Sequence record: PQ438393.1
DNA length: 64,000 bases
Direction: 5' to 3' (one strand)
Source of the DNA: Escherichia phage vB_Eco_J-01
Of the stretch, positions 538 through 2,786 are shown piece after piece. Position 1 is the first letter of the stretch. Every line of letters starts with the position of its first letter. The notes under the pieces are model-generated. The model saw nothing but the letters and a program-made list of their open reading frames with translations. It searched no databases and was not told the origin of the DNA. The position numbers and the translations under genes were made by a program.

Positions 538-896
538 TGTGCGCTACTAATCAACATGATATTTGTTACCAACCTCTTACTTGGATTGGTGAGGATCACT
601 ATGCTCAACGTGTTATAGTATGCGCTGCGAATAAGTATATTCTCAATAATGGCAAAGAGTTAATTATTCCTTGTGTTAGGCATGCAAATCCTGTACTATC
701 TGCACAACTTAATGTTTTAAAAGATGCAGGATTGATTGATAAACTGTTTTGCTTACCTGATAATCAAGGGTTTATTGATCAGTATTATAACTGGTGGAGT
801 CGCAAAGATGCTTATATCATTGCAGATAACGCCAAACAAATTAACTACGAAAGAAATGGTCACGACAGTGAACTATTCAGCGAGGGATTATACTAA
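537..896 (+). CDS. hypothetical protein
   Basis: ORF track 534..896; ATG at 537 preferred over TTG 534. Confidence 0.5.
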   Translation: MCATNQHDICYQPLTWIGEDHYAQRVIVCAANKYILNNGKELIIPCVRHANPVLSAQLNVLKDAGLIDKLFCLPDNQGFIDQYYNWWSRKDAYIIADNAKQINYERNGHDSELFSEGLY

Positions 897-1447
897 TGTT
901 TATTACAAGCGATTTGCATTTTATGCACAAACGTATCCGAGAGTTTGCTCCTGAATATCGCCCGTGGGAAGATATGGAGCATATGACAGAAGCACTGATC
1001 GAAGCATGGAATAAATGTGCCACAACACCAGGAGTAAAGATGTACCATCTTGGGGACTTCTGTTTCGGGACTGAAGAAGATACCCGTAAGATTGCTTCCC
1101 GTCTCCAAGGGGATATTACTTACTGTGTTGGGAACCATGATTATAGTAAACACAGAAAAGTGCTTGCAGAGTATGGAGAAGTTGTGTATTATGACGAAGT
1201 GAAATATCAGAAGCTGTTCTTCGTCTTAAGTCATTACCCTATGGCTGCCTGGAATAAACAAGGGCGTGGATCAATCATGCTACACGGACACTCTCACGGA
1301 TCATTCCCTGATCATTTGTATGGGAAAATGTTGGATGTTGGTTGGGATGCACACGGGAAAATCTTGCATTTTGACGAAATCATCTCTATTATGGATAAGC
1401 GTGATATTATTGTTGTAGATCATCATAAAATAATCAAAGGAGATTAA
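896..1447 (+). CDS. calcineurin-like metallophosphoesterase (candidate RNA-end phosphatase)
   Basis: Motifs DLHF, GDFCF, GNHDY, HGHSHG in canonical order; directly upstream of ligase and kinase. Confidence 0.7.
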   Translation: MFITSDLHFMHKRIREFAPEYRPWEDMEHMTEALIEAWNKCATTPGVKMYHLGDFCFGTEEDTRKIASRLQGDITYCVGNHDYSKHRKVLAEYGEVVYYDEVKYQKLFFVLSHYPMAAWNKQGRGSIMLHGHSHGSFPDHLYGKMLDVGWDAHGKILHFDEIISIMDKRDIIVVDHHKIIKGD

Positions 1448-1448
1448 G

Positions 1449-2381
1449 GTGGCTAATTTCAATTGTGATGACCTGATTGCAAAAGGTTTAGTACATAAAA
1501 AAGAAGTTAAATCTGGAGAGTATGCTGGTCTTGCTGTACTTAAATACAAAAACAATGTATTCTGGGATAACTTGTGGAACGTTGACAAACGACTTTTAGA
1601 TTGTCGTGGGTTGGTTGTTGACTCAGAAGACAATGTTGTTATTTGGCCTTTTACTAAAATCTTTAATCGTTTTGAAAATGGTACAGATCTTCCAGCAGAC
1701 GAAATTGTAGATGCTGTCCGTAAAGTAAACGGTTTTATGGCATCTGTAGGTGTGTACAAAGGGAAACTTGTTGTATCAACAACAGGGAGCCTAGAATCAG
1801 ATTTCGCAATTATGGCAAAGAACCGTATTATTTCCGAGTGTGACGACATAGAGTATTTCATTAAGTGGACAGAAAGTGCAAAAGCAACTTTCCTTTTTGA
1901 AATCTGTGATCCTTCTGACCCACATATTGTCGAAGAAGAACCAGGCGCATACTTAATTGGAGCAAGAATTCAAAATCTTGATGGGACAAGTTTCATGTTA
2001 CCTGAAGGTGTTCTTGATGGGATTGCATCTGTTACAAAATTTAAACGTCCTGAAGTTTATCCGATGATTAAATTTTCAGATGTTGTTGAAATGTCTAAAC
2101 ATTGTAAACACGAAGGGTTTGTTGTTCGTGAAACAAACTACCCGTTTAACTTACTGTTAAAGATTAAGTCACCATACTATCTTGCTAAAAAATTCCTTAT
2201 GCGTGGTGGCAATAAGAAGTGGGATATGATTTGGGACAACCCAAACAATGCTAAACAAATTGTTGACGAAGAATATTATACTTTGCTAGAATGGCTTCGA
2301 AACAACTTTACTAAGACTCAATGGGCTGCTTTAGATCCACAAGAGCGACGTAAAGAAATAGAAAACTTCTTTGGAGGCTAA
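1449..2381 (+). CDS. RNA ligase-like nucleotidyltransferase
   Basis: GTG start after AAGGAG; ligase motifs KVNG (I), EGFVV (IV), LLKIK (V). Confidence 0.6.
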   Translation: MANFNCDDLIAKGLVHKKEVKSGEYAGLAVLKYKNNVFWDNLWNVDKRLLDCRGLVVDSEDNVVIWPFTKIFNRFENGTDLPADEIVDAVRKVNGFMASVGVYKGKLVVSTTGSLESDFAIMAKNRIISECDDIEYFIKWTESAKATFLFEICDPSDPHIVEEEPGAYLIGARIQNLDGTSFMLPEGVLDGIASVTKFKRPEVYPMIKFSDVVEMSKHCKHEGFVVRETNYPFNLLLKIKSPYYLAKKFLMRGGNKKWDMIWDNPNNAKQIVDEEYYTLLEWLRNNFTKTQWAALDPQERRKEIENFFGG

Positions 2382-2786
2382 ATGAAACAACTTATCATCT
2401 TACGTGGTGTTTCAGGTGCAGGTAAATCTACAGTAGCAGAAATTATTTCTGAAGGTTATTGGCCTATCTGTGAGGCAGATCAATATCATTACACAGAAAG
2501 TGGTGTTTACGATTGGAAGCCAGAGAATGTAGGTAAAGCACACGCATGGTGTCAGAGTATTGTTCGTGATGCTATGGCATCTAATATTAAAAAGATTATT
2601 GTCTCTAACACTTCAACCACAGAGAAAGAACTTAAACCTTATTTAACTCTTGCTGAAGAGTTTGGTTATCAAGTTATCTCTTTAGTTGTTGAAAATAGGC
2701 ACGGTAACGACTCAATTCATGAGGTTCCACAACATATTCGTGATCAGCAAGAGAAACGTCTTCGCAGTTCACTTAAGCTACAATAA
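2382..2786 (+). CDS. P-loop polynucleotide kinase-like protein
   Basis: Walker A GVSGAGKST near N-terminus; 134 aa; start overlaps upstream stop. Confidence 0.6.
   Translation: MKQLIILRGVSGAGKSTVAEIISEGYWPICEADQYHYTESGVYDWKPENVGKAHAWCQSIVRDAMASNIKKIIVSNTSTTEKELKPYLTLAEEFGYQVISLVVENRHGNDSIHEVPQHIRDQQEKRLRSSLKLQ

Follow-up and report, generated by a model that had tools for sequence, protein, structure and literature searches.

Results and Discussion

A three-gene cassette in a phi92-like myophage

The DNA analysed here is a 64,000-nucleotide (nt) stretch of Escherichia phage vB_Eco_J-01 (sequence record PQ438393.1; the whole stretch is called the window), and the subject of this work is a cassette of three genes within it, whose products are predicted to take part in the repair of broken RNA:

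896-1447, + strand: metallophosphoesterase (MPE), calcineurin-type, aq_1665-type, 183 amino acids (aa) (Pfam Metallophos, PHROG 547)
1449-2381, + strand: predicted ATP-dependent RNA ligase, 310 aa, GTG start (Pfam RNA_lig_T4_1, PHROG 562)
2382-2786, + strand: minimal P-loop polynucleotide 5'-kinase-like protein, 134 aa (AAA_33, PHROG 2071, PHROG 505)

An earlier examination of the bare letters (the sequence-only reading) had described a calcineurin-type MPE, an RNA-ligase-like nucleotidyltransferase and a P-loop kinase at 896-2786. Three same-strand open reading frames (ORFs) fill exactly this interval, and the Pfam and PHROG assignments agree with that reading. Its description of the genes as overlapping has to be corrected, since the spacers measure 1 nt between MPE and ligase (junction TAA-G-GTG, 1445-1451) and 0 nt between ligase and kinase (TAA-ATG, 2379-2384), the sole overlap being the 1 nt that the MPE start codon shares with the preceding stop codon (TAATG, 894-898). 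The Shine-Dalgarno sequence of each cassette gene lies inside the preceding gene. When window positions 1-6000 were scanned for promoters and terminators, promoter-like sites occurred at chance frequency; a GC-rich bidirectional terminator-like hairpin at 5570-5595, directly after a MazG-like gene, is the sole plausible transcription boundary in this interval.

The source of the window is a phi92-like myophage: positions 1-6000 share 99.0% identity with Escherichia phage JLBYU50 and 97.8% with phage phi92 (Justusliebigvirus, Stephanstirmvirinae), and 54 phage records cover at least 80% of this interval. The three cassette genes, which correspond to phi92 gp097, gp096 and gp095, are real; they are 97-99% conserved across more than 50 phi92-like phage genomes, and the homologues of each number in the hundreds. 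The cassette is a real, conserved phage RNA-repair set which, as a prediction, has already been annotated and described and is not new: the record of the BASEL phage JohannJBalmer annotates the trio as 'putative phosphoesterase / RNA ligase / polynucleotide kinase', and other public phage records carry the label 'RNA ligase/RNA repair'. What the present analysis adds is that the MPE is of the aq_1665 type and the most constant third partner, that a Sir2 homologue is kept but unlinked in phi92-like phages, and that the same ligase family is also present in tri-domain proteins resembling the Pnkp of Clostridium thermocellum (CthPnkp).

The RNA ligase

The ligase matches Pfam RNA_lig_T4_1 (3e-14) and PHROG 562, the T4 gp63/Rnl1 family (1.7e-68). 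As a single sequence it finds no match in the PDB and a profile is needed: a profile of 19 sequences retrieves T4 Rnl1 (2C5U, 5TT6, 9DO4) with an E-value of 8e-27 over residues 45-280, in an alignment extending to T4 Rnl1 residue 296, and the next PDB match reaches only 2e-3. This profile gave no sequence alignment with Trl1 at E<=1, and the ligase chain of CthPnkp (Rnl4) was found neither by the profile at E<=1 nor in the Foldseek top 50. The AlphaFold2 model of the ligase (predicted local distance difference test score, pLDDT, of 90.2) has T4 Rnl1 (the same three entries) and the ligase domain of fungal Trl1 (Trl1-LIG) as its top Foldseek matches (E ~1e-12), followed by Rnl3, Rnl2 and Rnl5, with DNA ligases far lower (E above 1e-5). 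Judged by profile and modelled fold, the protein appears to be of the T4 Rnl1/Trl1 type and not a DNA ligase; the DNA-ligase kinship that the sequence-only reading had named as counter-evidence to RNA repair is therefore not what profile and Foldseek indicate.

The motifs KVNG, EGFVV and LLKIK, on which the sequence-only reading had based its assignment, are all present in the translation, and nucleotidyltransferase motifs I (K92-V-N-G95), III (E151), IV (E222-G223) and V (K238-x-K240) are complete. Among 144 representatives of the ligase family, R53, K70, K92, N94, G95, E151, E222, G223, K238, K240, K248 and R252 are invariant, and position 72 is F or Y. R53, K70, K92, G95 and E151 align with T4 Rnl1 R54, K75, K99, G102 and E159, and E222, G223, K238 and K240 with T4 Rnl1 E227, G228, K240 and K242 (the roles of T4 Rnl1 R54, K75 and F76 are set out in PMC6379707). 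The invariant set thus comprises the nucleotidyltransferase residues as well as those of the N-subdomain that are specific to Rnl1, whose T4 counterparts are R54, K75 and F76/77. Motif I reads KxNG in this family, against KEDG in T4 and KENG in Trl1. The putative 2'-PO4 site of CthTrl1 comprises H227, R334, R337 and N150; the ligase residues K248 and R252 lie 8 and 12 positions past motif V, compared with 9 and 12 for Trl1 Arg334 and Arg337, and T4 Rnl1 is non-basic there.

In Shuman's scheme, it is the C-terminal domain that formally assigns an RNA ligase to its clade, the Rnl1 clade being marked by the C-terminal tRNA-specificity domain of T4 Rnl1 (aa 255-374). Because only ~65 helical residues (about 245-310) follow motif V here, against ~120 in T4 Rnl1, we file the protein as an Rnl1-like adenylyltransferase domain. 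A ligase homologue in another phage, RSP15 gp097 (NC_030948), is labelled 'metallophosphoesterase', which is probably an annotation problem.

The kinase

The kinase matches Pfam AAA_33 (6.9e-10), PHROG 2071 (9e-58) and PHROG 505, 'polynucleotide kinase' (6e-9). Here too a profile is needed, the single sequence reaching T4 Pnk with an E-value of just 0.24; a profile of 18 sequences retrieves the T4 Pnk kinase domain (1LTQ/1LY1) at 1.5e-13 over its full length (1-131), then Capnocytophaga Pnkp1 (9e-11), PSTK (5e-10), CthPnk (6e-10) and, weakly, mammalian PNKP. The top four matches (T4 Pnk, Pnkp1, PSTK and CthPnk) are all RNA-end or tRNA kinases. Invariant in the family are G12, G14 and K15 of the P-loop and D33, the candidate general base (equivalent to T4 D35); at position 16 this protein has Ser, and its relatives have either Ser or Thr. 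The HAD (DxDxT) 3'-phosphatase domain is absent, as the protein ends at residue 134 and matches only the kinase domain of 1LTQ. Based on these alignments, it is probably a divergent, minimal member of the polynucleotide 5'-kinase clade.

The metallophosphoesterase

The MPE matches Pfam Metallophos (1.7e-5) and PHROG 547 (5e-55), and its active site is fully intact: the binuclear-metal motifs D6-x-H8, G53-D54, G79-N80-H81-D82, H113 and G131-H132-x-H134 are invariant in 39 MPE homologues. Both by profile and by fold it is closest to Aquifex aq_1665 (1XM7), a structural-genomics protein, which is the sole strong PDB match of the profile (2e-22) and is also reached by the single sequence (1e-6). 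The next structural neighbours are LpxH, YfcE, MJ0936, Mre11 and the Pseudomonas putida MPE nuclease, and there is a weak NCBIfam match to PdeM. By profile and fold comparison the protein is not of the lambda-phosphatase/CthPnkp type; this MPE and that of bacterial Pnkp share a superfamily but belong to different families. We predict that it acts as a 2',3'-cyclic phosphodiesterase and/or 3'-phosphatase.

Linkage, gene fusions and distribution

The genomic linkage of the three families was surveyed in 80 IMG/VR loci with ligase homologues (37-96% identity), whose 10-kb flanks were scanned with custom hidden Markov models (HMMs), and grouping the ligases at 60% identity gave 35 lineages. Of the 80 loci, 73 contain the kinase and 61 the MPE, with median edge-to-edge gaps from the ligase of 32 bp and 220 bp, respectively. 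Within 3 kb of the ligase, 30 of the 35 lineages have the kinase, 31 have the MPE and 27 have the two together. The gene order varies (MPE>LIG>KIN, KIN>LIG>MPE and LIG>MPE>KIN, LIG and KIN being the ligase and the kinase), and in rV5-like phages the genes are divergently transcribed.

In 11 of these loci, kinase and ligase form a single ORF, as in L048 (9581-10846, 421 aa). The L048 fusion is followed by another, unrelated ORF that resembles an RNA ligase (12530-13609, motif EKLDG) and by an Adps gene. Additionally, we surveyed 150 ligase-family representatives (50% clustering), sorted into three groups by their hit patterns: the kinase is N-terminal to the ligase in 24 and C-terminal in 3, both orders occurring among P0385, P0397, P0404, P0453, P0455, P0490, P0495 and L048. 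A further 22 representatives (P0444 and 21 others) are tri-domain proteins of 700-812 aa (PHROG 8238); Pfam scans of four of them gave AAA_33-Metallophos-RNA_lig_T4_1 in each case. Their ligase domains are 33-40% identical to the window ligase and have all of its catalytic residues. The aq_1665-type MPE profile has no match within the tri-domain proteins; in P0444, the only one searched against the PDB, the kinase matches CthPnkp 4GP6 (4e-13) and the MPE matches CthPnkp 4J6O (3e-14). At least one tri-domain protein is encoded on a phage-like contig (L093, at 1-714) which also carries a separate aq_1665-type MPE and a Band_7 protein. Two apparent MPE-ligase proteins of two domains (P0501 and P0441) were set aside as tri-domain proteins that seem to be truncated N-terminally, both starting inside the MPE-like domain.

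The kinase-MPE-ligase relatives indicate that the partners of this ligase family include a polynucleotide kinase and a phosphatase of the MPE fold. The MPE of the split form belongs to another family than that of the tri-domain proteins, so that the cassette did not arise by simply splitting a Pnkp.

Among 50,697 phage records, the ligase occurs in 755 and the kinase in 622, with near-identical counts by host genus; the ligase family is carried by Escherichia, Pseudomonas, Vibrio, Klebsiella and Acinetobacter phages.

A predicted heal-and-seal pathway

The homology and fold of each of the three proteins, their intact catalytic residues, the conserved linkage and the fusions are direct observations. 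We read the trio as an RNA-repair set because the ligase resembles T4 Rnl1, the kinase resembles T4 Pnk, the three genes are linked in 27 of the 35 lineages and the families occur as fusions. In this respect the end-healing and sealing function put forward by the sequence-only reading largely stands, whereas its framing as a split bacterial Pnkp does not, and it had missed the cREC, MazG-like and Sir2 genes treated below, together with the prior annotation and description.

On balance, we lean towards the trio being a phage RNA heal-and-seal pathway which would work like T4 Pnkp plus Rnl1, from different parts. Its most likely task is to mend tRNAs cut by host defence nucleases. Defences that cleave tRNA are common (PrrC, RloC, PARIS, retron/PtuAB-type, OLD and Cas13), and T4 Pnkp plus Rnl1 is, to our knowledge, the only experimentally established phage repair answer to tRNA cleavage. 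In the proposed pathway, the aq_1665-type binuclear MPE would remove the 2',3'-cyclic or terminal phosphate to leave a 3'-OH, possibly assisted in this lineage by cREC (a cyclic-phosphate-processing receiver-like protein); the 134-aa P-loop kinase would phosphorylate the 5'-OH from a nucleoside triphosphate, with D33 as general base; and the Rnl1-like ligase would adenylylate itself on K92 and transfer the AMP to the 5'-phosphate, which the 3'-OH would then attack, sealing the break.

We infer each of these activities, the RNA substrate and, above all, the role of the MPE, which is the weakest link: it is assigned to 3'-end healing because it is linked to the other two genes and no other phosphatase is present, and not through homology to a characterised RNA enzyme. 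That the MPE serves specifically to heal RNA 3' ends within a tRNA-repair trio widespread among phages, countering tRNA-cleaving defences, is a tentative proposal which we hold at somewhat less than even chances; the MPE would then provide the 3'-phosphatase that recent phage papers miss in the kinase. In a bolder extension, the ligase family would be Trl1-like (2'-PO4-dependent) and NAD+-coupled to the phage Sir2 and to the NARP1 genes.

Several facts weigh against the pathway as a whole or against the part given to the MPE. Literature searches found no measured activity and no biochemical or genetic test for the three proteins or their close relatives. R38, D85 and R126 are essential in T4 Pnk according to mutagenesis; the first two are replaced in the kinase by H36 and by N76 (a nearly invariant Asn), and R126 has no clear equivalent in the profile alignment. 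The 11 kinase-ligase fusion loci, as well as two truncated relatives of the same lineage, have no MPE in their flanks. The MPE family is uncharacterised and occurs in 1415 of the 50,697 phage records, about twice as many as the ligase; phages of Staphylococcus, Enterococcus and Bacillus and T5-like phages of Vibrio carry it away from any RNA ligase, and in contig L093, from a metagenome-assembled genome, it sits between the NARP1 genes Adps and Namat and not beside the ligase (on this contig the tri-domain protein itself covers repair). Finally, the conserved proximity could stem in part from a shared counter-defence island.

Independently of our analysis, RNA repair has been predicted for the rV5 neighbourhood (Iyer et al. 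2022, Viruses 14:1977), with a proposed clean-up of 2',3'-cyclic ends and a sirtuin acting like KptA. A 2025 Pakpunavirus paper predicted tRNA repair for the homologous kinase and ligase and described the 3'-phosphatase as missing from the kinase, and the MPE was not linked to them.

If the proposed pathway is correct, phages would have a second and much more widespread repair solution, many of its carriers being therapy candidates. A function would be found for an orphan MPE family whose structure (1XM7) is solved but unexplained, and the participation of a phosphatase-less kinase in repair would be explained. It would also provide compact new enzymes for RNA-end chemistry, with moderate practical value.

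The wider neighbourhood

The module is larger than three genes, as it includes cREC, a MazG-like gene and a distant Sir2 homologue. The following further features of the window bear on it:

37-378, + strand: cREC (cyclic-phosphate-processing receiver-like) protein, predicted accessory in Vequintavirinae-like phages (Pfam cREC_REC 3e-14)
537-896, + strand: PHROG 839 protein, 119 aa, between cREC and MPE, not assigned to the pathway (PHROG 839 2e-47)
3528-4643, + strand: ATP-dependent DNA ligase, not in the RNA pathway (Pfam DNA_ligase_A_M 6e-11, PHROG 114 2e-75)
4841-5563, + strand: MazG-like nucleotide pyrophosphohydrolase, belonging to the neighbourhood conserved in Vequintavirinae-like phages (Pfam PRA-PH 3e-7, PHROG 671 6e-28)
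32705-33517, + strand: Sir2 (sirtuin) homologue (HMM 1e-105; 55% identity to PVP-SE1 Sir2)

The cREC protein is 46% identical to PVP-SE1 gp107 and to an rV5-like homologue, both of which lie between the ligase and either the kinase or Sir2, and it is found in 10 of the 80 ligase loci. The MazG-like gene has a homologue in an rV5-like phage and is found in 13 loci. The genes of PVP-SE1 follow one another as MPE, two others, ligase, cREC, kinase, Sir2, DNA ligase, two others and MazG, and the rV5-like order is similar. In PVP-SE1 and rV5, Sir2 is thus the neighbour of the kinase; in the window it stands 30 kb downstream of the cassette, as the end of a block of + strand genes, and the sign of the GC skew switches near 34 kb. 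Loss of Sir2 from phi92-like phages was considered and rejected, as an HMM scan of the whole window located it at 32705-33517. The position that Sir2 occupies in PVP-SE1 and rV5 is taken here (2796-3541, + strand) by three small acidic or coiled-coil ORFs of 106, 74 and 67 aa, with no detectable Sir2 similarity, the first belonging to PHROG 18076 ('hol-like chemotaxis'). In 44 of the 80 loci a DNA ligase is encoded no more than 10 kb from the RNA ligase; the one in the window has KLNG as its motif I, the usual form being KxDG.

The PHROG 839 protein, which has no Pfam match, is almost wholly confined to phi92-like phages (three of the 80 loci, two of them phi92-like and one a weak match in L068) and was rejected as a partner of the MPE, since no homologue adjoins the MPE in PVP-SE1, rV5-like phages, RSP15, PA10, phiAbaA1 or Va1. 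It is labelled 'anti-restriction nuclease' in JLBYU50 and ESCO8. No Pfam match to Hen1 or a methyltransferase was found in the eight ORFs of window 4-5563 that were scanned (4-378, 534-896, 896-1447, 1449-2381, 2382-2786, 2796-3116, 3480-4643 and 4841-5563), and none is annotated around the phi92 or Nernie cassette.

There are no tRNA genes in the window. The relatives carry ~15 of them upstream of the point that corresponds to window position 1 (phi92, L001 1-4001; Nernie, L003 2066-8096), and the same region, which is transcribed divergently, holds the NARP1 NAD+-reconstitution pair Adps/Namat, annotated as PRPP synthetase/NAMPT. Of the 80 loci, 41 have Namat and 35 have Adps less than 10 kb from the ligase. 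This arrangement suggests a recurrent counter-defence island combining RNA repair and NAD+ rescue.

Alternative explanations

The main rival to the T4-like pathway, which we consider unlikely, is a Trl1-like, NAD+-coupled repair following the model of Iyer et al. Here cREC or the MPE would open the cyclic phosphate to a 2'-phosphate, the kinase would phosphorylate the 5' end, the ligase would need or tolerate a 3'-OH/2'-PO4 end, and Sir2 or the host KptA would clear the 2'-phosphate at the junction with NAD+, which the neighbouring NARP1 genes would replenish. Such a route draws on the grouping of Sir2, cREC and MazG with ligase and kinase in PVP-SE1 and rV5, on the Sir2 homologue in the window and on the frequency of NARP1 genes near the ligase (35-41 of the 80 loci). 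The ligase itself recalls Trl1 in its motif I, where the Trl1 Asn150 touches the putative 2'-PO4 site, in the invariant and similarly spaced K248 and R252, and in Foldseek scores equal to those of T4 Rnl1. Nevertheless, Sir2 and cREC are near the ligase in just 10-11 of the 80 loci, compared with 61 for the MPE, and Sir2 is 30 kb away here. The tri-domain relatives, in which a CthPnkp-like phosphatase is expected to leave a 2'-OH, show the same invariance of K248, R252 and N94, and the correspondence of these residues to Trl1 is one of spacing and not of superposition. The ADP-ribosyl/2'-phosphotransferase activity of this sirtuin clade is itself a prediction (Iyer et al. 2022).

It is also rather improbable that only the ligase and the kinase repair RNA, the MPE being a neighbour with another job, such as the breakdown of immune signals or by-products (nucleotide or ADP-ribose-derived) or the trimming of DNA ends; 3' healing would then fall to cREC, a host enzyme or another phage phosphatase. 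The occurrence of the MPE family in many phages without the ligase and in unrelated contexts (including its place between Adps and Namat in L093) fits this explanation, as do its structural neighbours after aq_1665, which are not RNA end-healing enzymes, the weak PdeM match and the frequent presence of a DNA ligase nearby. What tells against it is the short median distance between MPE and ligase and a linkage that 31 of the 35 lineages have kept despite at least four different gene orders, together with the ligase relatives that are fused to an MPE-fold phosphatase. Moreover, the kinase lacks a phosphatase domain, and 3' healing would therefore be missing in most lineages without the MPE. The idea that the MPE is the phosphatase of extended NARP1 operons was rejected, since Adpp, the phosphatase that experiments have linked to NARP1, belongs to the Poa1p-like Macro-domain proteins and not to the MPEs.

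The claim of the sequence-only reading that the cassette is a bacterial, CthPnkp-type Pnkp split into three genes is highly improbable, since the agreement in the three domain superfamilies, and the tri-domain proteins in the Pnkp order kinase-MPE-ligase with a related ligase domain, are outweighed by an MPE that matches aq_1665 where the tri-domain one matches CthPnkp, by a kinase whose best match is T4 Pnk, by the order MPE-ligase-kinase, by the lack of any match to the Rnl4 ligase domain and by the absence of Hen1.

Comparison with known repair systems

The closest parallel is T4 Pnkp plus Rnl1, the counter to PrrC, with which the trio shares a phage-encoded location beside a tRNA cluster and the predicted scheme of healing both ends before sealing, in addition to the Rnl1-like adenylyltransferase domain and the kinase's best match. 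It differs in having a stand-alone kinase without HAD phosphatase and with two of the essential T4 residues replaced (R38 by His, D85 by Asn), a separate binuclear MPE as candidate phosphatase, and a ligase with a shorter C-terminal region and KxNG in place of KEDG. The Pnkp/Hen1 system of Clostridium thermocellum likewise combines a kinase, a ligase and a calcineurin-fold MPE in place of a HAD phosphatase, but in one protein, in another order, with an Rnl4 ligase and with the methyltransferase Hen1 as partner. The tri-domain proteins have a ligase domain of the same family and are found on phage-like contigs (L093), but they are single polypeptides whose kinase and MPE are CthPnkp-like and belong to other families than those of the window.

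The rV5/Mydo-type sirtuin neighbourhood (Iyer, Burroughs, Anantharaman and Aravind 2022) belongs to a related phage group and contains a T4-like tRNA ligase, cREC, a nucleotide kinase, MazG and a calcineurin-like phosphoesterase, all of which lie within 37-5563 here, the sirtuin being distant instead of adjacent. The emphasis given by these authors is reversed in our survey of 80 loci, in which the MPE is the common partner and Sir2 and cREC are occasional. With the fungal and plant Trl1 + Tpt1 pathway, the trio has in common the ligase fold match (equal to that of T4 Rnl1), the KxNG motif I, the basic residues past motif V, a separate kinase activity and a possible NAD+-dependent clean-up; unlike that pathway, it has no 2H cyclic phosphodiesterase, consists of separate proteins and has a ligase C-domain that is not comparable.

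Two minor observations concern the rest of the window and the public records. A C5 cytosine DNA methyltransferase-like ORF (motif GGSPCQGFS) lies at 30387-31376 on the + strand, and several GenBank records of 'Campylobacter jejuni phage' (MG0656xx) are 96-98% identical to these coliphages, probably owing to an annotation problem.

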